Positions 31,768-64,000 of a DNA stretch of 64,000 nucleotides are shown one piece after another. The stretch's first letter is position 1. Each line of letters starts with the position of its first letter. This stretch comes from Bacillota bacterium (GTDB lineage Bacteria; Bacillota; Clostridia; Christensenellales; SZUA-584): contig JAEWCC010000007.1 of NCBI GenBank assembly GCA_023390815.1, positions 25,315-89,314 on the forward strand, in the 5' to 3' direction. The position numbers were made by a program, and so were the translations under genes. The notes below the pieces were generated by a model that was not told where the DNA came from, did no database searches, and was given only the letters and a program-made list of their open reading frames with translations.

Positions 31768-31778
31768 AACTGTTCTCC

Positions 31779-40872: not shown

Positions 40873-40926
40873 ATACGTCCCCCTGCATACTTAATCTTTG
40901 GTTCGGCGCTCCTCGCTTGGCTCCGG

Positions 40927-41875: not shown

Positions 41876-41906
41876 CGGAATACCTCCTCATATCTTTTTT
41901 ATCGAT

Positions 41907-42824: not shown

Positions 42825-42842
42825 ACTCCCTCCTCGTATTAT

Positions 42843-44051: not shown

Positions 44052-44124
44052 TCGTGATTCCTCCTTGCTATGAATCAATGCTCGCCTCCAACCGTGATTC
44101 TTCACCTTTACTCGTGCCTTTTCG

Positions 44125-45390: not shown

Positions 45391-45424
45391 TGGCGACTCC
45401 TCCTTGTTTGGTCAAATCATAACT

Positions 45425-47623
45425 TCATTCAAATTCGATGGTTTCCTCCACCATTACATCGCAGCTTTTTGATGCACAAGAAGAATTGAAATCATGATGC
45501 AGGGAAACATTTCTGCCGCCAATTCCCTCAAGCTTCTCCCGGTAATGTTCCGACCTTCCATATGCATAGCGCAGAAAGGCTAAAGTTTCTTTAAACTTTT
45601 CCAGCTCTGTTCTGTGCAAAAGGTAATCAATCTGCATCTGCATGAACTCTATACCACCGTACCGGATACACACGTCTTTCTCGTCTTCACCTGTAAGCCC
45701 CGCAATAATTGCCGCAAAGCGCAGCGCTGCCTCCTCATCACCCTTCCGCAGATTAAGCGCTGCAGCCGCCACGATCTCATCCCGTTTACCGGCAAAAGCA
45801 TCGCTGCACAACAGCTTTCTCGCAAGTATGATACTTACGCTGTTGCGGCTGACCATGTCAAGCAATACTTCCCACCTTTTAAGCCGCCACGCGGCCGCGG
45901 CGTGCAAACTTAATTTCTTATCATCAAGCGCTATTTTTTCAATGAAATCCTGATCCTCAATACGTTCGATCGCAGCAGCACTCACAAGAAATGACTCGTC
46001 ATCTTCGTCGGCGAGTACATACGTTTTTAAAAAGTCCTGATCCGTAATGCGTTTAATCGCCGCAACTCGCACGCTTATCGATTCGTCATGAAGCACGGCT
46101 TCCTTGAGAGCATCCCCGTCTGCCTGCTCTAATGCCGCGATACGCATGGCCTCCAGCTTTTTATATGCCACGTAGTACACATCGCCTGTAGGCTTGGCCT
46201 CTCGAATAATCTCCTTAAGCGCTGCTTCTTCTTCAACCCTCTCCGCAGCCGCTTTGGAAAAACGATTGCGGCCCACCGCAACTTTAAGTAAAATGCTTGT
46301 GTCAGATATATAGTTCAATGCTTCGACGCCGATATATGTATCCAGTCCATCCGCAAGGCCCATGGCCTGATAGATGATGTCCTGATTGTGTATTCTGCTG
46401 AGCGCTGCTTCTACAAGTTGCTTATCATCTTCCGACTGCCTGAACTGCGTACGCTCCCAAACTACCTGCCCCAGCCGTTCATCCACCGTTAAACGGCTGA
46501 CCGCAGCCAGTCGTATCGGCTGCTGGTAACGGTATCTGTCACATGCCAGCTCCGCAAGCAGCGGCTGGCTGGTCAGACGCAGTACTGTTTTCTCGTCCAA
46601 CTCCCTCATATGACGCCGCGCGTACAGGTTTAAGTCGGACGGATCTGTAATCAGCGATACCGCTTTCTGGCGTGCCTTATGATACCGGGATTTGATTGCC
46701 ACATCCAAAAGCTGTTCTTTCGAAAGCGAGGCCGAAGTTGTATTTGCTGGTTTTTTTTCGCTGCCTTTTTTCTCAGCCGTCGCAGGCCGAAGCGCTTTGC
46801 TCAGGAGGTCCTCTGAAACGTCGTCGGGATTCATGGTAATAAACTGAATGATGTCGGCCTGCACTATTAGCCTATCCGCCGCTTCCTGCCGGATGACGGA
46901 TGAGCCGTTATGCAGAGCTATTTCAAGTAGTGTTGACTGATCGGTGATACGTTCGAGCGCCATCTGTCTCGCTTTGATAGCTTTTGCAGTGCGGACCGCT
47001 TCAAGCACCGACTCTGGTGCTGTAAGCCGCTGCACCAGTACTCCCGCGGATTCGCTCAGAGTAATACCTATATCGTCAATGGTTTCCAGTGTCTTTAATA
47101 TCGTTGTATCCGAAAACCGCCATATAAGCGCGTCCATCTCCTGCGCGGTGCACGAGAATAACCCCACGCAATGCAAAAGTACCATCGACATATAATTATC
47201 GTCTTTAACGCAGCGCTTCAGATATTCATTCCTTTCCTTAGGCTCGAGGGCTTTCAGAAACTTTGCAAATAAGGCCGGATCCGCCGTCAGATCCATTGCG
47301 GCGTTAAGCAGCGCCGTCACACGAGGCTCCCCCAAAGATGCTTCGTATTCCAGGCGCTGCAATATAACTGGAAACTCCTGATGGTTATCCGCAATGCGCA
47401 AAAGCGCAGCAGCTGCAACATGCGCACTGATACGTGATTCGCCAAGCGCCAGCTGCTCAAGCAGCAGTTCGTCTTTGATACGCGAAACGGCAAAAAACGC
47501 CACCATCTCATCATGCGCGCCTTTCGCCGCGCGCAGCAGCGCGCCATCGGATTTCAGCAAAGACACTGCGGCTAACGCCTTCTTAGTATCCTTTTTATGC
47601 CACTCATTTGAAAACAATCCCAT
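45425..47623 (-). CDS. MGLF / HEAT-like repeat / HxD-tail family protein (member 5, 732 aa)
   Basis: Start moved to the ATG at 47623 (MGLFSNEWHKKDTKKALAAV, RBS GGGAGG). Tail VSLHHDFNSSCASKSCDVMVEETIEFE. Confidence 0.75.
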   Translation of the reverse strand: MGLFSNEWHKKDTKKALAAVSLLKSDGALLRAAKGAHDEMVAFFAVSRIKDELLLEQLALGESRISAHVAAAALLRIADNHQEFPVILQRLEYEASLGEPRVTALLNAAMDLTADPALFAKFLKALEPKERNEYLKRCVKDDNYMSMVLLHCVGLFSCTAQEMDALIWRFSDTTILKTLETIDDIGITLSESAGVLVQRLTAPESVLEAVRTAKAIKARQMALERITDQSTLLEIALHNGSSVIRQEAADRLIVQADIIQFITMNPDDVSEDLLSKALRPATAEKKGSEKKPANTTSASLSKEQLLDVAIKSRYHKARQKAVSLITDPSDLNLYARRHMRELDEKTVLRLTSQPLLAELACDRYRYQQPIRLAAVSRLTVDERLGQVVWERTQFRQSEDDKQLVEAALSRIHNQDIIYQAMGLADGLDTYIGVEALNYISDTSILLKVAVGRNRFSKAAAERVEEEAALKEIIREAKPTGDVYYVAYKKLEAMRIAALEQADGDALKEAVLHDESISVRVAAIKRITDQDFLKTYVLADEDDESFLVSAAAIERIEDQDFIEKIALDDKKLSLHAAAAWRLKRWEVLLDMVSRNSVSIILARKLLCSDAFAGKRDEIVAAAALNLRKGDEEAALRFAAIIAGLTGEDEKDVCIRYGGIEFMQMQIDYLLHRTELEKFKETLAFLRYAYGRSEHYREKLEGIGGRNVSLHHDFNSSCASKSCDVMVEETIEFE

Positions 47624-47868
47624 GCGTTTTCCTCCCTCGCACCGCTGCAGGACAGCAGCCGCGATCACCGTTCCGGGTCGAAATAAAACCCATAATCCGC
47701 GTATCTACCGTTACGGTGAGTGTTGAGGGTATACCTCCCCTGCTGCTGCGCAATGCGTTTCCTGTATAGGTCTGAATGCCGATAAAGCGCAAGCATGAGC
47801 CTTTCTCGCAAAAAACTCAATTTACAGGTCAATCGTTGCCGGTAGTCGCTGCCCAAGAATATTTCAGA

Positions 47869-48981
47869 TCATACGGGCAAGTCAAAGTGCACCTTTGCTT
47901 TGTCTTCATGCGGAGAACAACGATCTTCTCTATAATCGTCATGCGCGTGATATATACGCCGGGGGATTACCAAAATCGCTTCACGCACAGCATCGTCCTT
48001 GGCTTCGCGGTACATTTCCATTAAGGCTTGCTGCGCAAAGGGCGCAGCGCGTCGACTTTTTTCCATTATACGCAGAAGCGCTTCCACCGATGCTTTGGTT
48101 CGGATATCTCTGAACCGGTCACAAACTTCCCGATATTGATGAAAATCTTTGCGATCAATCAGCCTCTCCAATGCCGGAACAACACGTGGATCGTCAAGTT
48201 CCATCAGATAATACGCATTATCGTTGCGCAGACACCCGCTTATTAAAGAGGCAAGCGGCTGTGAATAGTGTGAAGAATCACGCTTCATGAGTTCAACTGC
48301 CACAAGGCAGCGGACATACTTCAAGTTATCGGTGCGGAGCGCGAAGGACAGCAGCGAAGCATTGGATAATCGCGACATGGCCAATTCAGCAATTCTTGCT
48401 CGGCACTTCTCGTCCGCATCTTCCAAAATATTTTTTTCGAGCAGGGCTAAATCGTCAATCTTATCGAAAATGTCCTTATTCCAATAGGGGTCTCGACGAA
48501 AACAGAAATACAATGTGTTTGGATCGGCAGTAATTTTTGCCAGGTGTTGGGCGGTATTCCTGCAGACCTGGTGGTCCTTTTCAGTCATTATGAGTTTTTT
48601 CAGCAGTTCCACGTTCATTATTCTTTCCGAGGCATTCATTCTGGCGAAGAGACTTGTTGCTTCTGCCGCTATCTTGAACAGCATATTATCGTCGCTGATT
48701 TCCTCCATTGCTTTTCTCGCAAATTGACTCGCCTTATTACGATAAATTTTTGAATAATCGCATTTTATAATTGCCTCCGTTCGCACATAAACCGAGCTAT
48801 CCGTTGCGGCGATTTTCGCGATTACTTCCTGATCCGTCAGCTTTTTTACAGCAATGGCGCGCGTTGTTTCAAGCGGTGCTTTGAGCGCTGCTTCGGCTAT
48901 CTTTTTCTGGTCGTTCAGATTTCCAATGGCATTTTCAGCCCGAGGCCTGTCCTTGCTCATCCATGGTGTAAATAATCCCAT
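47869..48981 (-). CDS. MGLF / HEAT-like repeat / HxD-tail family protein (member 6)
   Basis: Start moved to the ATG at 48981 (MGLFTPWMSKDRPRAENAIGNLNDQKKIAEAAL, RBS AGGAGG). Tail IYHAHDDYREDRCSPHEDKAKVHFDLPV. Confidence 0.8.
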   Translation of the reverse strand: MGLFTPWMSKDRPRAENAIGNLNDQKKIAEAALKAPLETTRAIAVKKLTDQEVIAKIAATDSSVYVRTEAIIKCDYSKIYRNKASQFARKAMEEISDDNMLFKIAAEATSLFARMNASERIMNVELLKKLIMTEKDHQVCRNTAQHLAKITADPNTLYFCFRRDPYWNKDIFDKIDDLALLEKNILEDADEKCRARIAELAMSRLSNASLLSFALRTDNLKYVRCLVAVELMKRDSSHYSQPLASLISGCLRNDNAYYLMELDDPRVVPALERLIDRKDFHQYREVCDRFRDIRTKASVEALLRIMEKSRRAAPFAQQALMEMYREAKDDAVREAILVIPRRIYHAHDDYREDRCSPHEDKAKVHFDLPV

Positions 48982-49080
48982 ATTAGTACCTCCTATTGGG
49001 GTGCAAAGCATCTTCATTCATCGTAAAACTCTTAATCTTCATGTCTAGTGCTATTAACAGCGGGTACTCAAAAAAACGGC

Positions 49081-50439
49081 TTACATAGACAGGTCGAAGT
49101 GCACCGCTGAATCATCAATGTGGTTACAATTATTGTTACCTTTGTCCTTGTCGGAATGCTCATGATAAACGCGCTGAGGTATTTTCAATATGGTTTCTCG
49201 TGCCGCATCATCCTTAGTCTCGCGGTATATTTTAATCAGGGTTTCCCGTGCGAAAGTCCCGCCCTCATGATTCTTTTGCATAATACGCATCAGCGCTTCT
49301 ATTGATGCTTTTGTTTGGATTCTGCCGAGCTCTTCACAACAATTACGTTTGAGAATATGGTCTTTCTCACTTTTACAAGCCATCGCCTCCAAAGCCGGAA
49401 TAAGACGGAAGTTATCGATCACCTTAAGTTCCGCCAGATCGAGCACTCGTTGGCTGTGCAGACATTCGTTTATTAATGTGGCAAGCGGCTGTGAATAGCG
49501 TGAAGCCTCGCGCTTCATGAGTTCAACTGCCACATCACAACGTTTATTCTTTTCGTTATCCGTACGCAGAGCATAAGAGAGCAGCGCGGCATCGGACAAC
49601 CGCTCCATTGCCCAACCTATAATCCCACTTCGGCATTTCTTGTTTGAGTCTTCCAAAAGTTTTTTTTCGAGAAAAGCTATATCATCAATCTTATCGATAA
49701 GGTGCTTAGAGCAATATGGATCTTGACTAAAACAGAAATACAATGTATTTGGGTCGTTCGCCTTTTTTGCAAGGCGAGTTAGTACGTTATAATAGACTTT
49801 CGTGTTTCCTTTTTGGGACATTACCAGTTCCTTCAATCGTTCTTCCCCATCTGAAAACTGCATAATCTTATCCAGTATCCAGTAGTCGTCTTTATTATTT
49901 TCGGCGGCAATCTTCAGAAGCAGTCCCTCGTTTTCAATCTTTTTCACGGCAGTTTCACGTGCCCTAAATTCATACGCTGATTTTGCTATCTCTGCCAGTG
50001 TATTTTCATCGCTGATTTGCTCAACAGCTTTGCACGACCGTTTCCCAATATAGTTTTCGCATGCAAGCTGCTTAAGTAGTTCCTTGTTCTTAATTTTTTC
50101 TATGGCGGCTATTGCTGTATCGTCGCAACGTGTCTCTTTTGCTATCTGGGCTAGTATATTTTCATCACAAGCTCGTTCAACTAATTTGCGCCCCGCTTCT
50201 TTATCAAAGTTTTCATATCGTCTTAGTGCCGTCTCGCGCATATAGTACGATCTATCCGCTATAACGATTGTAGCGATTACTTCCTGATCCGTCAGCTTTT
50301 TTACAGCGATGGCGCGCGTTGTTTCAAGCGGTGCCTTGAGCGCTGCTTCAGCAATCTTTTTCTGATCAGTCAGATTCTTAACGGCCTTTAGCGCCTTCGC
50401 TGCGTCTTTGCTCATCCATGCAGGTGCAAATAGTCCCAT
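49081..50439 (-). CDS. MGLF / HEAT-like repeat / HxD-tail family protein (member 7)
   Basis: MGLFAPAWMSKDAAKALKAVKNLTDQKKIAEAAL. Tail VYHEHSDKDKGNNNCNHIDDSAVHFDLSM. RBS AAGGAGA. Confidence 0.8.
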   Translation of the reverse strand: MGLFAPAWMSKDAAKALKAVKNLTDQKKIAEAALKAPLETTRAIAVKKLTDQEVIATIVIADRSYYMRETALRRYENFDKEAGRKLVERACDENILAQIAKETRCDDTAIAAIEKIKNKELLKQLACENYIGKRSCKAVEQISDENTLAEIAKSAYEFRARETAVKKIENEGLLLKIAAENNKDDYWILDKIMQFSDGEERLKELVMSQKGNTKVYYNVLTRLAKKANDPNTLYFCFSQDPYCSKHLIDKIDDIAFLEKKLLEDSNKKCRSGIIGWAMERLSDAALLSYALRTDNEKNKRCDVAVELMKREASRYSQPLATLINECLHSQRVLDLAELKVIDNFRLIPALEAMACKSEKDHILKRNCCEELGRIQTKASIEALMRIMQKNHEGGTFARETLIKIYRETKDDAARETILKIPQRVYHEHSDKDKGNNNCNHIDDSAVHFDLSM

Positions 50440-50724: not shown

Positions 50725-51294
50725 TTATTTTGGGAAATGCACTATGGGTAGTCTATCCTTCTGTCCTCTCAGTGCCCTACCTTTTATCAATTCGTCAATT
50801 CCCGCATAAGTGAAGGCAGCGCCAAGCATGCTGCATATCACACCCATAATTGCGTATAGAGCGCCTTCGTCTCCGGAAGAGAAACCCTTCTTGCCAAATT
50901 GAACAAGCATAAGGACGCCAAATGCTACGACAAATGGACAGAGTATTGCTTCCAACCATCCTCGTTTTGAATTATAAGCCCACTTCTGTTTGCTGTGGCA
51001 GTGGGGGCACTCTTTATAGGCATCCAAAAAATCATAGTTCCCTTTTTGCACTTGTGCTTGATAGAGGCTCAATTCCTTTTCTACGGCTTCCCGCGCTTTT
51101 CCCTCACCGCACCTACGCTCATAATCGGTTAATCCAAGGTCCCCCTGTTTGCCTGCGGTTTTCCTGTATTCATATATTAAGGCAACAGGCCTTTTCCCTG
51201 AAACGGCTTTACCGCAATTACCGCAGATATAATCAAACTGAACGTCTGCTTGTGATTGAAATTTGTATGTTGTTTCCCAATAATGGCGTGCCAT
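50725..51294 (-). CDS. Zinc-ribbon membrane protein
   Basis: Start moved to the ATG at 51294 (MARHYWETTYKF, RBS GGAGGG). CGNCG...CPHCH. Two C-terminal TM helices. Ends LPIVHFPK. Confidence 0.6.
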   Translation of the reverse strand: MARHYWETTYKFQSQADVQFDYICGNCGKAVSGKRPVALIYEYRKTAGKQGDLGLTDYERRCGEGKAREAVEKELSLYQAQVQKGNYDFLDAYKECPHCHSKQKWAYNSKRGWLEAILCPFVVAFGVLMLVQFGKKGFSSGDEGALYAIMGVICSMLGAAFTYAGIDELIKGRALRGQKDRLPIVHFPK

Positions 51295-51340
51295 ATCTAC
51301 CCTCCAACGCAAATTGATTTCTCTGTATATCAACAAAGCT

Positions 51341-52363: not shown

Positions 52364-52526
52364 TGCGCGCCTCCTTATTTATACTCATCTGCTTCGTCAC
52401 ATCTTTTAGGATGCATTGGCGCGGCCGTGCAAAATGCACCATCGTGTTGTTCGGGCTGTGTTAATCACTACGATCGGCTCTGCTTCTATGCATCTGGTTA
52501 TTTGATAACTGGTATGTTTCAACTAT

Positions 52527-54023
52527 TTAGTTCGCGGGCAGTGCATATAGTTCCTCAACACTCATGCCGAAACGCGCCTGAACGCTCTCTTTGAAAATAT
52601 TCATTGGCACGTTCATAAAATCATCACCCTGCGTATTAAAGGCTTCGTTAAGCACCGAGCGTAAGGGTTCAATACTTTGCGGGTTATATTCAAATTTATT
52701 CGCGGCAGGATAATAGTCAAATCTTGCCTCAGCGCCGTCCTTTTCCAAAGAAATGAAATAAACATTCTTGTCTGCGAAATACAAAATCATCATCTGATAG
52801 CCCTTCACATTGGGATCAACAAACGATATGCTCCAGTCAAGCCTATTCTCGACGGCGACATTATTATCCCATTCCGGTTTATGTATAGAGATTTCCATGC
52901 CGTTTTCTTGGTAAGTATAAGTTCCCTTATAATCAAGAAATGCAAATCCAAGTGTTTCATACGGTGATTGCAGCACAATATTTTCATCAAAGGGCATGCT
53001 ATACAGAATATCGATAGGAATTCCTAACGCCTCCTGAATTGTATTGTCAAAGAAGATGAAGGGGGTAAGCAGTACATCTTCGTCGTTCACATCGCCAAAC
53101 GCCTCCCGCACAATTGCCTCCATGCTTGCACGGTCGCAATTGGTGCTGTTTGTCGCGACATCATAGACATAGGTATAGTTTTCCTGAGTGTTTGGATTAA
53201 ACATCCACACAACATAGGCGTTATGCACAGGATAGAAACCGATAGCATTCTTATAGCCACTCTCCGACCCGGTAACCACTCGAATGCAGTTTTGCCAATC
53301 TTGCTGCGGCGGAGTACCCCACTCGACATGATTGATGCGTATGTCATATTTGTCCGTTTGATACAAGGCCAGTTTGTCACCATCGTTGAAGCTAAAGCCA
53401 AACTCGGCAAGGGTGAAGGCCACAGTAAAATCGGCTTGTTCGAGGTTCGCGCGTAGATCCGCAAGCGGAAAATAGTTCCCAATCTGGCTATTCTCAAGGT
53501 ACAGACATTTTAGGTTGGTGAGGGCTAAAAGCGGCGTTGGGTCTGCGATTGTGGAATGGTCCAGCATCAAGACACTCAGGTTGGTCAGACTGGCAAGCGG
53601 AGTATAGTCTTCTGCCGTGCAGCCGGTGAGTATCAATGCTTTTAAGTTGGTCAGAGCTGACAGAGGCGTAATATCGGTGATTGCGTTACCGGATAAATCG
53701 AGACTTTCGAGGCCGGTGAAGTTTTCCAATCCGGCAAGACTGCTAATCGGTGCTTTTTCCGATATGTATTTCTGCCACTCCGCAAAAGCGAGGTTCAAGC
53801 TTGTCACAGCTTGCGCTTCCGTAACCGTAATGTCACCGGTGGGCTTGCCCATCGCACCACGCACTATCACCTCAAGCGTTGGGTCGGCAAAGGTCACAAC
53901 GCTAGTCGTCGCCGTTTCTGTCTGCGTTGGTGTTGGTAATGGTGTTGTCGAAGCCGGTGTGCTGCATGCCACCAGTGAAGTGAGCAGCAGCAGAGCAAAC
54001 AATGCGGGCAGTACCTTTTTCAT
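52527..54023 (-). CDS. Lipoprotein with leucine-rich repeats (internalin-like LRR) and unknown C-terminal domain
   Basis: Lipobox LLLTSLVAC. LRR run LAGLENFTGLESLDLSGNAITDITPLSALTNLKALILTGC...LASLTNLSVLMLDHSTIADPTPLLALTNLKCLYLENSQI. Confidence 0.75.
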   Translation of the reverse strand: MKKVLPALFALLLLTSLVACSTPASTTPLPTPTQTETATTSVVTFADPTLEVIVRGAMGKPTGDITVTEAQAVTSLNLAFAEWQKYISEKAPISSLAGLENFTGLESLDLSGNAITDITPLSALTNLKALILTGCTAEDYTPLASLTNLSVLMLDHSTIADPTPLLALTNLKCLYLENSQIGNYFPLADLRANLEQADFTVAFTLAEFGFSFNDGDKLALYQTDKYDIRINHVEWGTPPQQDWQNCIRVVTGSESGYKNAIGFYPVHNAYVVWMFNPNTQENYTYVYDVATNSTNCDRASMEAIVREAFGDVNDEDVLLTPFIFFDNTIQEALGIPIDILYSMPFDENIVLQSPYETLGFAFLDYKGTYTYQENGMEISIHKPEWDNNVAVENRLDWSISFVDPNVKGYQMMILYFADKNVYFISLEKDGAEARFDYYPAANKFEYNPQSIEPLRSVLNEAFNTQGDDFMNVPMNIFKESVQARFGMSVEELYALPAN

Positions 54024-54049
54024 TTGGTGAATCCTCCTTTTTTAATCAA

Positions 54050-55237
54050 TTAATTGTTGATAAAGCTCCAGTAATCCGAGAAATTTTCCTCACTTAGAAG
54101 AATACTTGCTCCGTAGAGCTGCTTGCCCTTTGCGGCATCGAGCATCTCTTTGCGCACGCTCTCGCCGACAGTAGTGGCATAGTCAAACAATCTTTCGGAG
54201 AAAATGCTCTCTCCCGATGTAAGGTTCAACAATTCGGCATCCAGCGAGGCGTTGTATTGCGGAATGGTAGAATCATCATCACTGAAATGGAACGTCCCGA
54301 TTTCGTTTTCATAGCTGTAATGCAATAGAAGCGCATAGGTGGCTTTGTTGGGATCATCGGTCAAGATCAGTCCGCCGAACAAAAGATTGCCTGAGGTTTC
54401 GATCATGTCCTGCGTGCTGATTGGTTTATGTCGGGCGGAGGCACTGTTGTACCCGCCTTCGGATTCCCTTTTGGTTACGGGATCGATCACCATATCCGCA
54501 CAGACGATGTAGTATTTGGGAATGGGAGAGGACGGCGTAAAGGCGCGGATGTCCGAGATCCCATAGGCGCTTTGAAGGGCTTGTTCGTCCCAATTACGAA
54601 GCAACGTCTCAGCGAAAATGGTTTCAGCGGGGTCTCTTAGTGCGGCTAGCTCGTCTTCTGCTTGAGACGAATCGTAGGTGCTGGGATCCTGTATGGATAA
54701 TTTGAAATCGAAAACGCCACACCCGATTTCTGTTTGCGTGCCATCTGTTCCGCTGTACAAATAGTTGTACACCAATAAGAACGGAGCAAGCTCTTCGTTG
54801 AAGCACAGGTTTGAAATCGTGTTCGCACCCACAGAAAATTCATCAGTATATTTGCCATATTGAACAGGGTATGGCCCCGCGAAGTGCTCTGTGGCTGATG
54901 CTACTTTTATTTTGGTCTTTGAATCCCCACTGCCCGCTGATGCGTTTAAGTTTGTAATCTTAATGGTTACGTCATGAATGTACGTTTTGTCGGCAGAGAG
55001 AATAAAGCTGCATTTGATATCGCCAACACCGGAATTTTTGCTATGCCCTGCGAAGAGCAATTCGCCTTCTTTGGGCTTGACCACAGGTTCCGCAGTGGGG
55101 GCTACCGTTGGTTCAACCGTGGGCGCTGCGGACGATAGTACTTCCTGCGATGCCGTTACCGCGGGAGCGGGTGCACTGCAGGCTGCCATCGAAACAATTA
55201 GCAACAACGCGGTAAATGTGAACAGTGTCTTTTTCAT
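54050..55237 (-). CDS. Lipoprotein of unknown function
   Basis: Signal peptide plus lipobox LLIVSMAAC. A/P/T-rich linker. 395 aa. Confidence 0.65.
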   Translation of the reverse strand: MKKTLFTFTALLLIVSMAACSAPAPAVTASQEVLSSAAPTVEPTVAPTAEPVVKPKEGELLFAGHSKNSGVGDIKCSFILSADKTYIHDVTIKITNLNASAGSGDSKTKIKVASATEHFAGPYPVQYGKYTDEFSVGANTISNLCFNEELAPFLLVYNYLYSGTDGTQTEIGCGVFDFKLSIQDPSTYDSSQAEDELAALRDPAETIFAETLLRNWDEQALQSAYGISDIRAFTPSSPIPKYYIVCADMVIDPVTKRESEGGYNSASARHKPISTQDMIETSGNLLFGGLILTDDPNKATYALLLHYSYENEIGTFHFSDDDSTIPQYNASLDAELLNLTSGESIFSERLFDYATTVGESVRKEMLDAAKGKQLYGASILLSEENFSDYWSFINN

Positions 55238-55293
55238 AATAGAAACCTCATTTTCTTATTAACCTCACCTGGTGAAAGATATCTTGTCATGCG

Positions 55294-56290
55294 CTACTTA
55301 AACAAATTCCATGATAAATCCGTCAGATCATACAGCACTTCATGCGTTATCTTACTTTCATTGCACAATTTTCCCGTCAGCAACAATGTTCCATTCCGCT
55401 TTAACCCAGCGGTTATATCAGCGTTGGCTTTTATGGCCACAATGTCAAGCCAGTGCTGCGTTGCTGTTTCTCCATTTTCACTGAATCCTGCGGAAACAAC
55501 GGTACCGTCTCCCTTAAGCCCTATTGACGTATGGTTACCAGCCGCAACAGCAACGATATCATGCCATTGCTCCACCGCGAGGCAGCCGCCTGCGTCGTTA
55601 CCAAACGCTTTTACCGTTCCGTCAGCTTTCAACAAAAGCGTGTGGTTAAAGCCCTGCAGCGACTCCAATGACATTATCAATTCCGAAGATATCACATTGC
55701 CCGCAGTCGTTATCGCCGGCGGCAAGCACTTTACCATCGGCGGTGATTCCAATGGTATGATTATCTCCTGTAGCGACGTCGATCACGTTTCTCCACCCGC
55801 TTACATCGCATTGCCCATAGGCGTTGTAACCCGCTGCACTGACGCTGCCATCCTCATGAACGGCAACAAAATGATTCATCCCAGCGGAGCCTGTCACCAC
55901 GTTGCACATCCCTGCAACGTCGCATCGCCCGTGCGCATTCTCTCCGGCTGTAAGCACAGTCCCTTTATTGGTGATCGCTGCCGAAAAGTAGCCACCACCA
56001 CAAAGAACTACTACATTTTTCCAGTCTTTGCTATTGTTTCTGCCATCCTTACCGAAACCTGCGGAGAGAACACTGCCGTTGTTCCTGAGGCCCATCACAT
56101 AACCACCGCCAACGGCGATTCGAGCCATCATTTTTCTTGTTTCACTAAGACTGAATCGAGCTGCTTGCACCGCTTCTGCATAAACCAAGCCGCCCGCCCG
56201 TTTTGTCTGTTGTATCTGCGGTTCTTGTCCCGATGCCAGTGAGTTGTTGTTCTCCTTTTCCGTCTTTTTCAAAATATCAAAAAATCCCAT
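55294..56290 (-). pseudogene. RCC1-repeat (beta-propeller) protein interrupted by a single frameshift
   Basis: ORF 55646..56290 (MGFFDILKK..., repeats GxNxxGQCDV) stops at ...IGVAAGL*. ORF 55294..55752 continues the repeats in another frame (GFNHTLLLKADGTVKAFGNDAGGC...). Deleting one T from the TTT run at 55648-55650 restores VAAGLNHTLLLKADGTV. Confidence 0.7.
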
Positions 56291-56415
56291 CTTTATATCT
56301 CCTTTGTTTTGGTTTTAAATCATCAATAAACTGTAGACCGGTTAGCAGCTAAGAGTTCTGCGTCTACCGGTTAAAATTCCCTGGCTTGAAACCTACCTCA
56401 ATCACTGTACTGGTG

Positions 56416-57675
56416 TCATAGTGGCTCAATAAGCCCGTCCTTGTCCACATAATCACTATGACCGGCACAATTGCTGCTGATGGGTCCGTCGTTGTGGACA
56501 TCGCGAAACCTCTTTTTCTGGCGGTCGGCGTGCTGTGCGAACAGCTCCGGCAGCTCTGCATCGGAATAGAGCCAGCGCAACTGTACGGAGGCGTGCCAAT
56601 TTCCCTCCGATACCATTTCCTCTAGTAATTCAATCAGCGCGAAAGAGCACCGCTTCTCAAAGAGCTTGCGAATATTTATACCATCGCCGATGTGCTGCCG
56701 CACGAAACGCACGGCTTCATCCTCGCTGCCGCACATGGCAAGCCGTTGCATAATGATATCGCTGTGCTGCGGATATTCCGCCTCGCGTTTCCGCCACCAG
56801 CAAGTCGGCGCGTATTCTACTGGTATCCATGTGGCAATATGTTCACGTTTCAGACTGTCTTTTGGTAAATTTTCAAACAGCGCCATAAGCTCATTGGCCT
56901 TCATTTTTTTCATCGCGGCGGTTTCGACATCTACTACTGTCGTTTTGATAAATACGTCTTGTGCGTCGCTAGGATCAATACGATTGGCGGCTCCGCCACT
57001 TACATAGCTATCCATAAGGGCAATCTGTTTTAGAAGAGTTGGGTTTTTGATACGCTCATCCTCGATGCACTTGATCCACAGCTTTTGCATGCTCTTCTCG
57101 TCAGCGAATGAGAGGATCAATCTGCATAGCATATTCTCATCCGTTATCTGTTCGCCGCAGAGAGCACGCAGCTTCCCGTTTTCCGAAGCATCCATCGCAA
57201 TTTGCGCAAACAGCCTTTGGTCAGCCTCGCCCCAGTCGGATTGTTTAAGCTCCCCCAGGCGCTCCATCGTGGCACAACGCACATCTGCAGAAAGCGCGCT
57301 ATTCGCCACAATATGGGTAAGTACTCGGACGTCGCTCAGGTGTCTCACAGCTGCGCGTTTCCCGGAGTCGCTGGGGTGCTGTCGGACAAGCGCATACAGC
57401 AAGCTTGGGTCGGTCAGCCGTTTCAATACGATCCAGCCGAAGGCTTCCAATGGCGGTTCTTGCGTCAGTGCCATAAAGAACTGTGCAAGAAATTGCTGGT
57501 CATTAATACGTTCAATGCAAAGCTGACGCAAATGAACCTGATCGTCGGGGGACAGCCCGGAATGGGCCAAATCCGAAAGCAGTATTTCAATCAGCTTCTT
57601 CTCGTCGCGTATTCTGCCGATGGCCTTTTTTTGCTTACCCCAATTTGTCGTCATATAAGGCCTAATAATACCCAA
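56416..57675 (-). CDS. MGLF-like / HEAT-like repeat / HxD-tail family protein (member 8, divergent)
   Basis: TTG start with RBS AAGGAGGA: (M)GIIRPYMTTNWGKQKKAIGRIRDEKKLIEILL. Tail RDVHNDGPISSNCAGHSDYVDKDGLIEPL. Begins 17 nt after the rSAM stop. Confidence 0.7.
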   Translation of the reverse strand: MGIIRPYMTTNWGKQKKAIGRIRDEKKLIEILLSDLAHSGLSPDDQVHLRQLCIERINDQQFLAQFFMALTQEPPLEAFGWIVLKRLTDPSLLYALVRQHPSDSGKRAAVRHLSDVRVLTHIVANSALSADVRCATMERLGELKQSDWGEADQRLFAQIAMDASENGKLRALCGEQITDENMLCRLILSFADEKSMQKLWIKCIEDERIKNPTLLKQIALMDSYVSGGAANRIDPSDAQDVFIKTTVVDVETAAMKKMKANELMALFENLPKDSLKREHIATWIPVEYAPTCWWRKREAEYPQHSDIIMQRLAMCGSEDEAVRFVRQHIGDGINIRKLFEKRCSFALIELLEEMVSEGNWHASVQLRWLYSDAELPELFAQHADRQKKRFRDVHNDGPISSNCAGHSDYVDKDGLIEPL

Positions 57676-57692
57676 TATTATCCTCCTTGCCT

Positions 57693-59897
57693 TTAATTGA
57701 GCATACCCGCCAGATGCTCAAACGCAGCTTTCCGAGCCGTACAGTCAAAATCACCGTTGTCGATGTTCTGTTTGTCTCTTGACCATGCCTTACACATACC
57801 GCCGCAGAGGTATCGAACTTCGCATTCTCTGCATTTTTCATTTATGTCCACATCGTGCCGGGTTAGTTCACGGAAAGTTACGCCCTCTACAACATCCTCG
57901 AGCCTGTCTTTAAGCAGGTTGCCCAGCCTCTTATCCGCACCGCACCACGCATAGCACGGATAAGCGCCGCCGTCCGGCTCCACGTAAAGGTTCTGCCCAA
58001 GGCCGCAGGAGAAGCGCGGCCTGAAAGGCCGTTTTTTCTCATTCTCGTCTATGCAGAGAAAATCCGAGTCCTTCGGTGCGCTTTCTGCTCGGCCTAACGG
58101 TAGAATTGGTCTGAATCGCACATTTTCGATCCCAAGACGTTCGCACAATTCATCAATCGATTTCCCTTCTTTTCCTTCGCGCTGCGTTTTCGTCAGCGTC
58201 GCGCAGACGCCTACCCTGCGGACAAAGCCCAATTCCTTAATTCGTTCAAGGTTATCTATCGTCCGTGCGTAACGCCCTGCGCCGCGTTGCGCATCGTGGC
58301 TCGCTTCGTCGCCGTCTACGCTGACCACAATTTCAGGAAAGGCCTCGCATACAGCTTTCAGGCGCTCATCGGAAATCAGAAAGCCAAGCGACGTGCGCAG
58401 TATCAGCCGCATACCTTTCAGCAAAATACGCCTGATTCCCGCTAGCATTGCGTCGATTTCGGTATGCACTAGTGGCTCTCCGCCCGTCACCACCACCGCG
58501 CGAAAAAACGACTTCTGCGCGTCTTTGATAATATTAAGTATCGCGTTTGCAGGCATCTCGCTCATTTCACTCTCGCCGCCCAGCGCATAGCAATGTCCGC
58601 AGCGCAGCGGGCAATCGAACGTGACGTGCAGATACAGCTTGTTGAGTTCATTGACTCGGTTTTTCTTGTAACGCTCAAGTGCAGTACTCGCACCATACGG
58701 ATAACGGCCCCACTTGGATGCCTGTCTCATACGCTGTTCGTTGATTTCCAGATCGTAGGGATGCGGCTGGTCGCCTGCCATTTGTAGCAGCGGAGCATTC
58801 TCAGGAGTTATGCGTTTCGTCATAATGTAACCCATCTCAAGTGCCATATCGCGCGATATCTCATCGAATACCGCGCGATACGCCTCGCAGTAAGGATCCT
58901 TGTTTGTATTCGATGCGAACATGTTGTAAAGGCATCCGCCGCTGCAATACGGGAAGTGTACGCACGTCCCGCATTCCGCATGCGCGCCTTCCTGCTTTTC
59001 CAGTAATTTGCGATACGCTGCGCTTTCAATAATCTGTGCTTCCGTCAGGTCGTCCATCACGTTCCCCAGCACAAATTCAGCATGACCGCAGAAGCGCTGG
59101 CATGAATATACGCTGCCATCTGGCGCGATCGCCGCGAAACGACCGAGGCACGGGAAAAAAGTGCACGTATGTCCCTCTCCGTCAAAGCAGCCTTTCGCCA
59201 TGGAGTCCAGCGTCGATACCCTTGTCTGCCGCATATTGTTTTTATACGCTGCCAGAGTGTCCAGCATAATTTTGGTCATGTCCGCTACGGCCACAGTATA
59301 CGCGTCAGTTTCGCGGCCAAGTGCGCGTACCGCGCCGTGTAAAGCATATGGAATACCACTGCGCAAACTGCCTGCGTAATGCCGGAATACGCGCTCCGCC
59401 TCTCCCGCGGATTCGTGAGTAAATGTGCAGATGCGGCTGGCCTCCACGCCATATTGCAGCAGCACCGACCGCCCGCGCTCGTTGGCGGCGTAGTACCCTT
59501 TTCCACGTTGTACATCACACATCGCCTCATCGCCGTCTATGCTCGTGCCCACTGCTATTTGGTAACCTCGGATGAGCTGTGCCATATGCTCATCCATCGC
59601 GATAAGGTTGCTCTGCATGGAAAGGCGCAGCCTACGCCCGAAGCGTTGCTGCAGCTTTGGTAATATGTATTCGTAAAACTCCGGTCCGGCCAGCAGCGGT
59701 TCGCCGCCGTGAAATGTGACGCGTACGTTTCCCTCTTCAGGCGCGATCCGTTCCATAAAATCAAGAGCTTTATCTGCCACCTCACGCGTCATGGTTTCGC
59801 CCCGGTTGGGGCCGAAGCAATAGGTACACGAGGCCTGGCAGGCCGCTGTGGGCACGAGCATGAAGTTGGAGGGGCAAAAAGCGGATGTATGTTCCAT
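57693..59897 (-). CDS. Fused double radical-SAM / SPASM-domain enzyme (two complete maturase-like units)
   Basis: Start moved to the ATG at 59897 (MEHTSAFCPSN, RBS AAAGGAGAC). Unit 1: CQASCTYC plus SPASM Cys array (CTFFPC, YSCQRFCGH, CGTCVHFPYCSGGCLYN, YCEAY). Unit 2: CPLRCGHC plus SPASM Cys array (SCGLGQ, YPCYAWCG, CRECEVRYLCGGMCKAW, DC). Confidence 0.85.
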   Translation of the reverse strand: MEHTSAFCPSNFMLVPTAACQASCTYCFGPNRGETMTREVADKALDFMERIAPEEGNVRVTFHGGEPLLAGPEFYEYILPKLQQRFGRRLRLSMQSNLIAMDEHMAQLIRGYQIAVGTSIDGDEAMCDVQRGKGYYAANERGRSVLLQYGVEASRICTFTHESAGEAERVFRHYAGSLRSGIPYALHGAVRALGRETDAYTVAVADMTKIMLDTLAAYKNNMRQTRVSTLDSMAKGCFDGEGHTCTFFPCLGRFAAIAPDGSVYSCQRFCGHAEFVLGNVMDDLTEAQIIESAAYRKLLEKQEGAHAECGTCVHFPYCSGGCLYNMFASNTNKDPYCEAYRAVFDEISRDMALEMGYIMTKRITPENAPLLQMAGDQPHPYDLEINEQRMRQASKWGRYPYGASTALERYKKNRVNELNKLYLHVTFDCPLRCGHCYALGGESEMSEMPANAILNIIKDAQKSFFRAVVVTGGEPLVHTEIDAMLAGIRRILLKGMRLILRTSLGFLISDERLKAVCEAFPEIVVSVDGDEASHDAQRGAGRYARTIDNLERIKELGFVRRVGVCATLTKTQREGKEGKSIDELCERLGIENVRFRPILPLGRAESAPKDSDFLCIDENEKKRPFRPRFSCGLGQNLYVEPDGGAYPCYAWCGADKRLGNLLKDRLEDVVEGVTFRELTRHDVDINEKCRECEVRYLCGGMCKAWSRDKQNIDNGDFDCTARKAAFEHLAGMLN

Positions 59898-59907: not shown

Positions 59908-60736
59908 TTATTCAATCGTAAAAAACTCGGGCGGTATCATACTGTCGGAATGTCCGAAATCCACATGGTCGCCAAGGTCCTGATAGTGGGACTCCGAATC
60001 GTTATGCTCTTCTTCACGAATCACGTGTCCGTTCAGCCGCGTAATATGTTCCTGAAACCTCCCGCTCCGGTATATATGTTGCAGTAAAGTGCATGCGTCA
60101 ACGGATTTGCGTTCAAAGCAGTGATCGGTCAGCTACTGGAACGCGGCTTCGTCTATCTCTGTGATCCAATCCGCTTCCCCATGAGCGCTTTCCTGAACAA
60201 GTCGGCAGCCCACATACCTTGAGAGTGTTTGCTCTTCCTCCAGAAAACCGGCAAGCAGCCCCGGAGACGAAAGTTTTTGTATAGCGGCTCGCCGTACCTC
60301 AGCGTCCCTATCCTCCCGGCATATGCGAAGCAGCAAATCCGCACCTTTCCGGACAGTATGGCCTGAATACATCCCTGTTTTGCTGCGCGATCTGCGCGAG
60401 AGCCACCGGATCGTTGATCCTGTCCATCGCTGTTCACCGCACGATGGACTCCCCGGCCTGTGCAATCGGCACCAGCAGTTTGTTCGGGACTTGCAGCCGC
60501 TTCATCATCCCGGTCAGCGCCATGGATACGCTTCTGGACAGCGTTCCCACCGCCAGGCCGAGCTTCAGCAACATATCCTCGTCCACAATATGGCCTATCG
60601 TCTCGGCCTTTGCGGTATCGCAGGTCAGCTCGTCAGGAGCAATCAGCTTAAGCCTTCTGGCTTTTCATTCGCGATATGCCCTCAGTGCTTTGTCGGGATT
60701 ATCTCTATTTTCCCAAACGGGTCTGAACAGTCTATG
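59908..60736 (-). pseudogene. Decayed member of the MGLF / HEAT-like / HxD-tail family
   Basis: Own translation: degenerate start (CAT AGA CTG TTC = xRLFRPVWENRDNPDKALRAYRE), in-frame TGA at 60665-60667, second TGA near 60435, frameshift near 60375, in-frame TAG at 60133-60135, then a family tail ...LLQHIYRSGRFQEHITRLNGHVIREEEHNDSESHYQDLGDHVDFGHSDSMIPPEFFTIE*. Confidence 0.7.
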
Positions 60737-60739: not shown

Positions 60740-63412
60740 CTACATCTCATTCGTCAGATTGAAATATGTATACCCCTCGTCCATGTGGCACCATTCGTCC
60801 CGGTATGCTTTGCCTTGCACGTCCACATGGGATATGGCTTTTTGTTCGAGCCCTTCTATGGCTCCGGAAAAACGACCCGCTGCGTAGACCCGCTTCAGCG
60901 CCGTCGCCACGGGTCGGTAGTCGAATTGCTCGTCCTTTTCGTTTTCCGCAATGATGGAGATCATCTTCACGACCGCTACGTCATTCAGCCGCCATGCCCA
61001 ACGCTTGTCAAGTTCGTCCAAACGCGAACAGATTTCAGGCGTACAATAGCGCGGGATATCAGAAATCACGGTCTCAAAAAGCGCCTTCGCGTCGGTAACG
61101 CGCCGCAACGCCTCTTTCCGTACGTTCAGCGCCTTCGCCTCCCGGGCGATTATCAGCAGCTTATCCGGATCGGTGATTCGCTTCATATCCATATCCGCTT
61201 TTTCAAGGTTCAATGCTATGTCCATCAGCGTATCCTCGTCAGCAATGCGCCGGACGGCTTCCTCCCTCATCAGCAGCGGCATATACGTATCAAGCGCAAG
61301 CTTTTTTAACTCTTCCGGGCTGGTGATCGCATCGAGTGCTGCCATCTGTTCCCTAAGCTCCTTTTCGTAATATGGGATGCGGTCTTCCGCATTCGTTTCC
61401 GGCACTACCGCGGGGACATGTTCTTCAGGTTTCGGCAACAAGTCAAAGTAGATGTAATCCCCGTCCTGATGGCACCATTTATCGCGATATTCCTTTCCGG
61501 TATAGTCGAAGTGCGCCACGGCTTTTCCATGCAATCCCTCAATGGCCGCTTTTGCACGTCCCTGCCGGTATATGCTTTTTAGCGCAGCCGCATAATGTCG
61601 GTAGTCGAACTGCTCATCCTTTTTGTTGTTCGCGATAACGCAGGTGAGCGTTTTAACCGCCGCGTCGTCAAGCTGCTGCGCCCAATCCGCATCCAACTCG
61701 CTCAGGCGCTCGCAGATCTCGGGCTTAAAGCTATTTTGCACATTGGCGCTTACTAATTTAAAAAGCGCTTTCGCGTCATGAATACGCTTTAGCGCCTGTT
61801 TGCGTATCCGCAGGTCTTTTGCGTCGTTGGCGACAAGCAGTAACATATCCGGGTTTTTAATCGTGTGCAGGTTGAAATCCTGTTCCTCCGGCATCTCGAT
61901 CTTCAGCGCAACGTCGAGCAGCGTATATTCGTCCGTGATTCGACGGGCTGCCGCCGCGCGTATTCTCGGCGCAACATCGCCGTCCAGTGCGATTTCCTTT
62001 AATGCCAACTGGCTTGTGACCGCCTGCAGATCCTGCAGCGCGTCGTTTACGTCCCTATTGTTTTGACGTCTGAATATCACCGGATCGATATCCGGCTTTA
62101 TATCGTCAAGTTCCAGATAGGTAAAGCCTCCGTCCTCGTGGCAGCCCTTATCACGGTTTACCTTCCCGCTGGAATCGCTGTGAGATACGGCAGTCCCTTT
62201 AAGCGCGGCGATATGCTGCACCGCATGTCCTTTCCCGTACATGCGCCTCAGCGCGGCTGCAATATGAGTATAATCGAACCGCTGGTCCGCCGTATTCTCC
62301 GCCAGTATCCCTGCCAAACCCTCCACGGTACGGTTACCGGCTTTTTGTACCCAGTCTTTATCGATTTCGTCGAGTCGCTCGAAAAATTTTCGGTCTCTGT
62401 AGCGCTTTGGGTTGTTGTCAAACAGCGAAAGCATCGTATCCAGTCTGCCAATGCGCAGCAGTGCGTTCTCGCTGATCTCGCTGTCCTTAGCGCCATGGTG
62501 GACGCGCAGTAGCGCCTCGTCCCCCGACACATATTTCAGTGCATCCGAACACAGAAAACTCGTTTGGTATTCGGATGGAAACCGTTCCGGGCCGTCGTGC
62601 ATGGCGATGCGCTCAAATACCCCAAAATCCCGGATGCGGCTTTTGGCCTGAACACGCGCCTCCTCCGGCCCGCTCAGCGCCATCAACGCCAGCTGCCGAT
62701 CGTCTTCGAGGTCTTCCGGGCTTACCAGCTTTGTACATTCACGCAGTATGTATTCATTCAACGTTTGGTCCATGATTACCAGTGCAAGTGCCGGGTCACC
62801 CGCTTTCTTCACTGCACCGGTGCAAATGTGTGCCTTCTGCGCAGTGTGTGCCAGCTTGACCGCACGGCCGGTATCCGTCATATTGGCTATTGCAGCCAGA
62901 CGGATATCTTCGTCATCCGCCGAGTCGAACGCTTCATTCAGGTATTGCGGATCATTGACCCTCTCCAGCGCGATCATGCGTACTCCTTGATCCAGGTCTT
63001 TCGCAGCCAGCCACTTGAGTGTCGCCTGATCTGCCAGATGCGCCGCTGCCTTGCGGCGCAGCCCGTACCCCCCCGCGTACCGAGCTACGGCGGCCAAACA
63101 GCTTTGCAACTTCGCGTCACTTTCGATCGCCCGCTTATCCATCTTTTCAAGGCCGTCCCACACGCGGCAAAGCGGCTCCACTGCCCTGAGGCGTTTGATC
63201 GCTGCTTCGCGCGGGACGCTTAATTTTGGCGTGTTTATCACATCTAGAATTAGCTGGCAGTCCCAAATCCGTTTTACCGCTTCCTCGCGAATATAATGAT
63301 TGGATGCATTCAATGCCGCGTCGCGAAGTGTTGCTTCCTTTTGAACTTTGTTCAGCGCCGCCAATGCATTTTTAAAGTTCTCCGACATCCATCCCGGCTT
63401 GAAAAGGCCCAT
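60740..63412 (-). CDS. MGLF / HEAT-like repeat family protein with three tandem tail-bearing modules (member 9, 890 aa)
   Basis: Start moved to the ATG at 63412 (MGLFKPGWMSENFKNALAALNKV, RBS AAGGAGG). Three copies of ...H.D..GK.(Y/N)RD..CH.D....Y..L: VSHSDSSGKVNRDKGCHEDGGFTYLEL, VAHFDYTGKEYRDKWCHQDGDYIYFDL, ISHVDVQGKAYRDEWCHMDEGYTYFNL. Confidence 0.8.
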   Translation of the reverse strand: MGLFKPGWMSENFKNALAALNKVQKEATLRDAALNASNHYIREEAVKRIWDCQLILDVINTPKLSVPREAAIKRLRAVEPLCRVWDGLEKMDKRAIESDAKLQSCLAAVARYAGGYGLRRKAAAHLADQATLKWLAAKDLDQGVRMIALERVNDPQYLNEAFDSADDEDIRLAAIANMTDTGRAVKLAHTAQKAHICTGAVKKAGDPALALVIMDQTLNEYILRECTKLVSPEDLEDDRQLALMALSGPEEARVQAKSRIRDFGVFERIAMHDGPERFPSEYQTSFLCSDALKYVSGDEALLRVHHGAKDSEISENALLRIGRLDTMLSLFDNNPKRYRDRKFFERLDEIDKDWVQKAGNRTVEGLAGILAENTADQRFDYTHIAAALRRMYGKGHAVQHIAALKGTAVSHSDSSGKVNRDKGCHEDGGFTYLELDDIKPDIDPVIFRRQNNRDVNDALQDLQAVTSQLALKEIALDGDVAPRIRAAAARRITDEYTLLDVALKIEMPEEQDFNLHTIKNPDMLLLVANDAKDLRIRKQALKRIHDAKALFKLVSANVQNSFKPEICERLSELDADWAQQLDDAAVKTLTCVIANNKKDEQFDYRHYAAALKSIYRQGRAKAAIEGLHGKAVAHFDYTGKEYRDKWCHQDGDYIYFDLLPKPEEHVPAVVPETNAEDRIPYYEKELREQMAALDAITSPEELKKLALDTYMPLLMREEAVRRIADEDTLMDIALNLEKADMDMKRITDPDKLLIIAREAKALNVRKEALRRVTDAKALFETVISDIPRYCTPEICSRLDELDKRWAWRLNDVAVVKMISIIAENEKDEQFDYRPVATALKRVYAAGRFSGAIEGLEQKAISHVDVQGKAYRDEWCHMDEGYTYFNLTNEM

Positions 63413-63498
63413 TGTATCCTCCTTGCTGGTTTCCGCCTGTTTTCCCTTCACCGCGCGCAACTCTTTCCGACCACTCCGCTGTTTATTCAGTTTTGTTC

Positions 63499-64000
63499 TC
63501 AGTCCAGCGTAAAGTAAGTATAACCTTCATCGTTATGGCACGACGCACTACGGTACTCCTTGCCATGATGGTCGCTGTGAGCAATCGGTTTGTTCATTAA
63601 ACCTTTAATCTCCGTTTGAATACGTCCCCTTTGGTATACCCGTTTCAGCACCGAACCAATATACCGCATGTCGAATCTCTCATCCGCCCTGTTACACGAA
63701 ACAGTTTTAACGAGCGCTTTTACCACGTCGTCATCCAGCCGCAGCGGCCAGTCTGCATCCAACTCGTCCAGCCGTGTGCATATTTCCGGCGTGAAGCTGC
63801 GCGGCATATCTGCTCTGACCACTGTATAAAGTATTTCTACATCCGTTATGCGCCGGAGGGCTTCCTCCCGCACCTCGCGCGCATTGGCTCCTTTAGCCAG
63901 CGCCAGCAGTATACGCTCATCGGCAATTCGGCTGACGGCCTGTACGCTGAGCTTATTGGGCATATTCGGATTTAAAGCGACAGCCCTCAAAAATTCGGGG
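63499..64000 (-). CDS. HEAT-like repeat / HxD-tail family protein (member 10), N-terminus outside window
   Basis: The frame is open to nt 64000 (the track M is a TTG; upstream codons are not stops). Ends IAHSDHHGKEYRSASCHNDEGYTYFTLD, the same module as in 60740..63412. Confidence 0.75.
   Translation of the reverse strand, partial: PEFLRAVALNPNMPNKLSVQAVSRIADERILLALAKGANAREVREEALRRITDVEILYTVVRADMPRSFTPEICTRLDELDADWPLRLDDDVVKALVKTVSCNRADERFDMRYIGSVLKRVYQRGRIQTEIKGLMNKPIAHSDHHGKEYRSASCHNDEGYTYFTLD

Follow-up and report, generated by a model that had tools for sequence, protein, structure and literature searches.

Radical S-adenosylmethionine (SAM)/SPASM maturases are a main source of new peptide chemistry, and their known substrates are nearly all short, leader-bearing peptides. 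Among peptides made on ribosomes and then modified post-translationally (RiPPs), multi-core precursors include the PatE-type cassettes of cyanobactins and the freyrasin precursor PapA, in which six C-x3-D motifs are modified by PapB. Two other enzymes work on a short motif within a protein: anSME makes formylglycine in sulfatases, and QhpD makes Cys-to-Asp/Glu thioethers in QhpC. Here we describe a locus in which an enzyme with two radical SAM/SPASM units adjoins genes for large helical-repeat proteins that carry a short tail rich in His, Asp and Cys. The window, i.e., the whole stretch of DNA that was analyzed, comprises 64,000 nucleotides from a Bacillota bacterium (assembly GCA_023390815.1, contig JAEWCC010000007.1, positions 25,315 to 89,314). 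A gene at 60740-63412 on its minus strand encodes an 890-aa protein in which the tail occurs three times. We consider it reasonably likely that this protein is a three-site substrate of the neighboring enzyme and was made by module duplication.

The start of the gene was assigned to the ATG at 63412, which follows an AAGGAGG at the proper distance and agrees with the family-wide N-terminus MGLFxPxW; the stop codon lies at 60740-60742, and an identical protein (P0001) is found in other assemblies. Module comparison and alignment divide the protein into an N-terminal region (residues 1-214; 62771-63412), module A (residues 215-437; 62102-62770), module B (residues 438-660; 61433-62101) and module C (residues 661-890; 60743-61432), all on the minus strand, as are the tails and linkers and the enzyme gene, pseudogene, paralogues and RCC1-like gene described below. 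The N-terminal region consists of the motif MGLFKPGWM followed by an alpha-solenoid, and a homologous region opens the single-module paralogues P0006 and P0007. A first-pass annotation, made by a model from the sequence of the window, had described three consecutive modules of about 225 aa bearing the tail motif. The modules are indeed consecutive and 223-230 aa long, and BLASTP finds each pair significantly similar (A/B 39% identity, 1e-32; A/C 34%, 6e-29; B/C 48%, 2e-68). The N-terminal region in front of them is about 214 aa rather than the approximately 430 aa given there, the first tail falling within the first 437 residues.

Each module closes with the consensus H.D..GK.[YN]RD..CH.D..[FY].Y..L. 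The tails end at residues 436, 659 and 887, a spacing of 223 and 228 aa or 0.67-0.68 kb, so the 0.67-0.69 kb periodicity reported earlier is recovered at the protein level. A six-frame search of the 64 kb for G[KR]..R...CH located the motif at 62138-62167, 61469-61498 and 60785-60814, all on the minus strand of a single open reading frame (ORF), again at 63535-63564 in the truncated upstream ORF, and at one unrelated chance match elsewhere. This upstream ORF (63499-64000) is the 3' part of a single-module paralogue whose full-length form has 471 aa (P0006). As had been proposed, it ends in the same module and tail, its last 166 residues matching modules A, B and C at 33-45% identity (1e-28 to 1e-51). 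Neither TRF nor a seed-based repeat search detected a DNA-level repeat in the three-module gene. Nucleotide identity among the modules is 43-56%, and the proportion of synonymous differences (pS) is 0.75-0.82, which corresponds to saturated synonymous sites. Because these sites are saturated, the module duplication is, by this measure, old and its copies have been retained. The periodicity is confined to the protein level, and therefore a DNA dot-plot, the check suggested by the first-pass annotation, would wrongly have spoken against it.

We then consider how the three tails and the linkers between them have been conserved. Tail A (residues 406-436, GTAVSHSDSSGKVNRDKGCHEDGGFTYLELD; 62105-62197) is internal here and C-terminal in the split orthologue P0007, and it matches the tail profile described below at 1.6e-14. 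Tail B (residues 629-659, GKAVAHFDYTGKEYRDKWCHQDGDYIYFDLL; 61436-61528) is internal in all versions found. Tail C (residues 857-887; 60752-60844) ends three residues ahead of the stop codon. Linkers rich in Pro and Glu follow the two internal tails, as had been noted, and are poorly conserved: the A-B linker spans residues 437-470 (DIKPDIDPV...; 62003-62104) and the B-C linker residues 660-700 (PKPEEHVPAVVPE...; 61313-61435). Across 10 modules from three orthologues, nine of the 31 tail positions do not vary (H, D, G, R, C, H, D, Y, L) versus 19 of about 199 positions in the module body. Codon alignments against three orthologous loci gave the following picture for each segment, expressed as amino acid identity and the ratio of nonsynonymous to synonymous substitution rates (dN/dS). 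Tail B is conserved above the module bodies (87-90% identity, dN/dS 0.03-0.19, versus 52-84% and 0.12-0.30); tail A is less clear-cut than tail B (61-100%, dN/dS 0-0.24), and tail C has 77-87% identity with a dN/dS of about 0.12. Identity falls to 15-76% in the A-B linker and to 7-22% in the B-C linker, where no constraint is seen. From these alignments, the internal tails are under purifying selection and the linkers are not. The claim that the tail motif is not strictly C-terminal in this protein therefore stands: its three sites are intact, and the orthologues P0002 (76% identity) and P0003 (58%) have all three tails, so that the loss of internal motifs from orthologues, which had been named as grounds for doubt, was not encountered.

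The putative modifier of the tails is encoded just downstream, at 57693-59897, as a 734-aa double radical SAM/SPASM enzyme. Both halves carry a CxxxCxxC motif, a GGEP motif and SPASM cysteines, and Pfam Radical_SAM and SPASM each match two stretches of the protein. Across 15 relatives there is little or no variation at C20/C24/C27, C429/C433/C436, the GGEP of both halves and the SPASM cysteines. The N half matches TIGR04083, a hypothetical equivalog of NCBIfam named 'peptide-modifying radical SAM enzyme', with 341.3 bits (cut-off 300; E 5.9e-102); the alignment pairs residues 18-362 of the enzyme with positions 2-348 of the 376 in the profile. That model describes a single unit of about 376 positions, and the 734-aa enzyme adds a second complete unit outside it; full-length double relatives of 780-820 aa carry the name of the TIGR04083 family at NCBI. 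Runner-up NCBIfam models for the N half are the anSME, PapB, DynA, CbpB and SCIFF maturases, all under their own cut-offs, and the closest solved structures are anSME for the N half (1.5e-26) and CteB for the C half (5e-15). Because the CxxxCxxC motif begins at residue 20, there is no N-terminal RiPP recognition element (RRE). Our literature search found neither a characterized member or experimental study of a TIGR04083-type system nor a paper linking such enzymes to helical-repeat proteins. A known defense system was considered for this locus and rejected, PADLOC giving just a weak, generic viperin-type radical SAM similarity.

Full-length double enzymes are found in many phyla, down to 36% identity. 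We sampled eight lineages, namely the clade of the window, L094, L095, L010 (a Clostridia-like contig), L012 (Lamprocystis purpurea), L013, L014 and L015, and in 8/8 of them tail-bearing helical-repeat proteins adjoin the double enzyme, often as several genes. Full-length relatives of the enzyme at 36-74% identity, from Lamprocystis and other metagenome contigs, lie beside helical-repeat proteins with the same tail, ending for example in ...RHDDYGNDCGWHNDKSVFAEFKL, ...SHRDSSDPCEGHSDRGVGIDFTL or ...CVSTHEDKGIGIDF... An alignment of 23 tails shows a Y..G helix, a short strand, H-x-D, 6-12 residues usually with a Cys, a second H-x-D and a hydrophobic-x-F/L end; the Y..G helix ahead of the tail and the two H-x-D motifs are common to the units of the three-module protein and to single-tail relatives across phyla. 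Some relatives have Y-A-D, Y-S-N or H-Q-S in place of the first H-x-D. All three tails and those of most relatives contain C-H-x-D, but some tails of the family lack the Cys (e.g., 38536-39780). A profile made from this alignment matched 45 ORFs among 96 sequences (0.94 Mb), all in double-enzyme loci or in the window, a count that is partly circular as the profile was partly built from sequences that it matched. The independent part of this comparison is provided by about 75 control loci with other radical SAM/SPASM genes, in which no tail-profile match was found. These controls came from a metagenome scan with the enzyme alignment, which returned chiefly unrelated radical SAM/SPASM genes and only two true double enzymes (L014 and L015). 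No other candidate substrate is conserved beside the enzyme, and among the conserved neighbors (L001, L006-8) there are no peptidase or transporter Pfam matches. Neither Pfam nor NCBIfam was found to hold a family describing the tail-bearing proteins. A word-indexed database search with the 23-sequence tail alignment gave no match, which is a limit of that search method.

Within the window, nine proteins of the family have near-terminal tails, and internal tails occur in the 890-aa protein alone; the 15 internal tails found in all belong, every one, to orthologues of the three-module gene. At least eight further paralogues lie at 38536-50439 and 56416-57675, mostly with an MGLFxPxW start (one MGII), HEAT-like repeats and H-x-D tails, and a single enzyme gene appears to serve all paralogues of the window. 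Some of these paralogues have distinct tail subtypes; one of them, H.D..H.DTGIGLKFREYEGF at 42843-45390, resembles the 'GIGIDF' tails of distant phyla. A pseudogene of a further family member (59920-60735) separates the three-module gene from the enzyme gene. It is disrupted by in-frame stops, a frameshift and the loss of about 65 aa, and its tail can still be recognized; an intact gene in L009 shares 70-79% identity with it, and L001 has an intact version of 349 aa.

To place these elements in a structural context, an AlphaFold2 model was computed from a nine-sequence alignment (mean predicted local distance difference test, pLDDT, of 80). The predicted fold is an alpha-solenoid throughout, with stacked helix pairs at pLDDT 80-95; the N-terminal region is all helical at a pLDDT of about 90, except for its first seven residues, which are of low confidence. 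In each tail the model shows a first strand (residues 408-411, 631-635 and 859-862), a low-confidence loop holding the D..GK.YRD..CH.D residues (416-427, 637-651 and 864-879) and a second strand (431-432, 652-655 and 881-883). Confidence is also low for residues 660-684 of the B-C linker. Foldseek against the PDB returned generic HEAT/ARM solenoids, the best being importin-beta and other karyopherins, with template modeling (TM) scores of 0.1-0.2. The 890-aa protein has no Pfam match at E <= 0.01 and thus falls short of assignment to HEAT; its paralogues reach 22-29 bits against HEAT_2, around the cut-off of 27.7. A loop pinned by two strands at the end of a rigid module, as the model suggests, fits an enzyme-accessible site.

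To trace the history of the three-module form, we relied on an exhaustive profile search of 1.84 billion representative proteins, since an initial word-indexed search with the whole 890-aa query gave four proteins and missed the paralogues. More than 3000 proteins match the helical-repeat body and only about eight clusters extend into the tail. The related loci contain one-module forms (P0006, 471 aa; P0009; P0011; P0013), a two-module form (L005, 671 aa), which is a recombinant of the upstream gene's N-terminal region with a B-type and a C-type module, and the fused three-module form (the window, L001/L003 and L002/L004). A split form is present in L006-8 and L009. There, the N-terminal region and module A form a gene of their own (P0007, 438 aa, ending YLELDKI and then TAA TAA), followed after 24 nt by a 439-aa gene for B+C with its own GGGAGG and ATG and without the MGLF N-terminus. 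The comparison of split and fused orthologues that had been suggested therefore yields both, with junctions collinear within 3 nt and in the same frame; the A-B linker occupies the position that holds the stop codons, Shine-Dalgarno site and start codon in the split loci. Two diverged contigs have conserved the split B+C gene (72% identity, dN/dS 0.21) along with its Shine-Dalgarno site. An N-terminal motif M-x-[LIF]-F-x-P-x-W, located here at 63386-63412 (residues 1-9), occurs in many tail-bearing proteins and is absent from the split B+C genes.

In the loci found, modules B and C never occur as single-module genes; they are always joined and lack the family N-terminal region. A head-to-tail fusion of complete single-module genes was rejected on this ground, and the earlier suggestion that several single-module genes were fused is too simple: the layout fits a module-only duplication with unequal recombination. 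In a tree of modules, those at the same position (A, B, C or upstream) in different genomes cluster with one another, and the B, C and upstream clusters group together, apart from A. In the enzyme tree, whose basal branches are short, the split form is limited to one branch and fused forms occur to either side of the clade; outgroup loci (64-72% enzyme identity) have single terminal tails only. The most economical history begins with a single-tail ancestor, to which modules akin to the neighboring paralogue would have been appended by unequal recombination, with fission later in one lineage. A fission confined to one lineage is favored over fusion by the fused forms on either side of the enzyme tree and by the single terminal tails of the outgroups. 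As far as the sequences recovered indicate, the three-module architecture is rare and confined to one small clade of uncultured Bacillota (metagenome-assembled genomes labelled Bacillota or Christensenellaceae). DNA identity to L001 is 78% for 60751-63644, the stretch of the three-module gene, versus 92% for 52509-59881, from the enzyme to lipoprotein genes; either the three-module gene evolves faster than the adjoining block or it has a different recombination history.

Taken together, we propose the following mechanism. The 890-aa protein would be a cytoplasmic, HEAT-like alpha-solenoid with three units, each combining a recognition helix with a loop and each presenting a substrate site to the double enzyme, whose gene lies just downstream. 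The ancestor would have carried one such unit at its extreme C-terminus; two more modules came, on this proposal, from module-only duplication and unequal recombination with the neighboring paralogue, and two tails became internal as a result. Each tail is pictured as two short strands around a flexible loop of 16-20 residues with H-x-D ... C-H-x-D, whose residues the enzyme would cross-link or otherwise modify, giving a single chain modified at three sites. Both the action of the enzyme on the tails and the use of all three we infer; in our estimate, the double enzyme likely modifies every one of the three loops in a chain that is left uncut. Since selection maintains tails A and B in their internal positions, a free C-terminus could not be a requirement of the reaction.

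Several points weigh against this proposal. What ties the enzyme to the tails is gene neighborhood, and part of the tail count is circular, as said above. The enzyme has no recognizable peptide-binding (RRE) domain by which it might recognize an 890-aa substrate. In 45/45 tail-bearing ORFs a tail lies 0-8 residues from the stop codon, which suggests a role for the terminal position and raises the possibility that internal tails depend on cleavage or are poorer substrates. This last observation is also the strongest argument for a polyprotein, in which the disordered, P/E-rich linkers would be cut before or after modification to release three single-module proteins or small modified peptides with near-terminal tails. 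The B-C linker, of low confidence in the model and not conserved, would suit such a cut, as would the A-B junction, where a linker and stop and start codons have replaced each other in evolution without a shift of place or frame. Nevertheless, we regard a polyprotein as unlikely: the conserved neighbors lack peptidase and transporter matches, and B and C stay joined in a single gene when A is separate, which means that no gene ends in tail B, these two being the strongest points against it; furthermore, the linkers have no common motif, and about 30 aa of the B-C linker, i.e., most of it, is deleted in L002/L004.

His, Asp and Cys are also typical metal ligands, and the tails could instead be structural metal-binding knuckles capping the solenoid modules, with the radical SAM enzyme acting elsewhere. 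Two H-x-D motifs and one Cys are conserved, and the predicted strands around the loop could close on a metal. We hold this to be slightly less probable still than the polyprotein, given that the tail-bearing proteins stay next to the double enzyme in different phyla, with free variation in the rest of their sequence, that Y-A-D, Y-S-N and H-Q-S in place of the first H-x-D suit an aromatic-x-x cross-link motif better, and that the enzyme has no other conserved candidate substrate beside it. Metal binding and modification are compatible, as modification could create a metal site. Finally, the gene might be an artefact or relic, either a misassembly of tandem paralogues or a fusion pseudogene with dead internal tails. 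The locus is certainly dynamic, with the pseudogene directly downstream, a broken upstream paralogue in L001 and L009, and recombinant forms. However, the same uninterrupted architecture is present in at least four independent assemblies at 58-100% identity, dN/dS is low (0.03-0.27 in every segment), and constraint on the internal tails equals or exceeds that on the terminal one. Because the fused gene recurs in independent assemblies and its internal tails are kept at low dN/dS, the three-module gene is, judged by its sequence, neither a misassembly nor a decaying fusion; this explanation is largely refuted and we give it very little credence.

Returning to a substrate modified at three loops, the nature of the modification can be approached through analogy. 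A Cys-to-Asp thioether, as made by PapB or QhpD, is a candidate, C-H-x-D being present and the Cys absent from some tails. An aromatic-to-C-beta cross-link on [H/Y]-x-D, as in triceptides, is a lead only. It may be speculated that the two catalytic units and the two triplets per tail correspond to one reaction each. More broadly, we tentatively entertain a bolder idea, for which the odds are clearly lower than for the three-site substrate itself: the tails may be sites of an undescribed radical SAM modification on large folded proteins, for example a His-to-Asp (aromatic to C-beta) link from one half of the enzyme and a Cys-derived link from the other, with the three-module protein as a polyvalent carrier or polyprotein. 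If true, this would be a new class of protein-level, RiPP-like maturation across several bacterial phyla; in the libraries searched, we found neither the substrate family nor the chemistry described. What the enzyme, with its two complete catalytic units, appears to act on are entire helical-repeat proteins of 250-970 aa that carry a reactive loop of 30 residues, and the fact that the loop is kept under selection when internal constrains how the enzyme may recognize it. The fused and split variants offer a natural test of the enzyme's need for a free C-terminus, and the one-, two- and three-module and split relatives form a natural construct series for the study of modification, processing and stoichiometry.

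Other features of the window and of related loci were recorded. Double-enzyme loci tend to adjoin signaling- or conflict-type genes, such as those for a TIR-TPR protein and for Ser/Thr kinases with leucine-rich repeats (L010 2735-6996; L001 2828-4579; L006 2951-4699). Zinc-ribbon proteins are encoded near them as well (L001 7195-7839; L006 6746-7396; window 50725-51336). These neighbors are hints of a broader functional context. An RCC1-like repeat gene at 55294-56290 is frameshifted near 55650 and reads as two overlapping ORFs; its L001 orthologue (16275-17270, 331 aa, 93-96% identity) is intact. A low-GC island at 28000-34000 (GC content 0.33-0.44) holds a 398-aa relaxase- or Rep-like ORF, a helix-turn-helix protein and a pair of AAA+ proteins of 316 and 447 aa. 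An AAA+ protein of this island has weak PADLOC matches (DolB, PDC-M37B). The island is probably a mobile or defense element that was inserted, and it falls outside the L001 stretch with which this part of the window aligns. Three very large predicted surface proteins with repeated C-terminal domains are unrelated to the three-module gene: 13156-19920 (minus strand, 2254 aa), 22065-28064 (plus strand, 1999 aa) and 34078-38385 (minus strand, 1435 aa).

Finally, we compare the locus with the systems closest to it. It resembles TIGR04083 systems in that the N half of the 734-aa enzyme scores above the family cut-off; it differs in that the model covers the first of two halves and no substrate family is defined for it in NCBIfam or Pfam. 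By analogy, the three helix-plus-tail units recall multi-core RiPP precursors, in which one product repeats a recognition element and a core. However, each 'leader' here is a folded helical-repeat module of about 190 aa in a substrate of 890 aa, and the conserved neighbors (L001, L006-8) include no match to a protease or exporter. The enzyme is likewise distant from PapB and the ranthipeptide maturases (194 bits versus 340 for PapB, 141 versus 425 for SCIFF). With anSME and QhpD it would share action on a short motif within a protein, it likewise has no N-terminal RRE, and anSME is the closest solved structure of its N half; the scores are nevertheless low (196 versus 349 for anSME, 122 versus 453 for QhpD), the tails contain no sulfatase motif, and two complete maturase units are fused here. 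Paired radical SAM/SPASM units and His-x-small/polar triplets in the substrate are also found in the His-Xaa-Ser (Hxs) system with HxsB and HxsC, from which our locus differs by score (137 bits versus 370 for HxsB), by H-x-D in place of tandem H-x-S repeats and by its large solenoid substrate. Triceptides are three-residue cyclophanes formed on aromatic-X-X motifs, with HAA, HNR and HTK as His motifs (PMC11499958). The two [H/Y]-x-D triplets per tail and a radical SAM/SPASM enzyme adjoining the substrate gene are similar, but H-x-D is outside the His motifs named in that paper, and the cyclophane-synthase models (YhhB, AmcB, GrrM/OscB, FxsB) score 92-113 bits against cut-offs of 310-445. The general logic is already known: radical SAM/SPASM maturases are found next to substrates whose core is C-terminal, and precursors with several cores exist. 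What varies here within that logic is how large the substrate is and how it folds, the doubling of the enzyme and the internal position of the core, in a system that is widespread and of which the three-module protein is a rare form.

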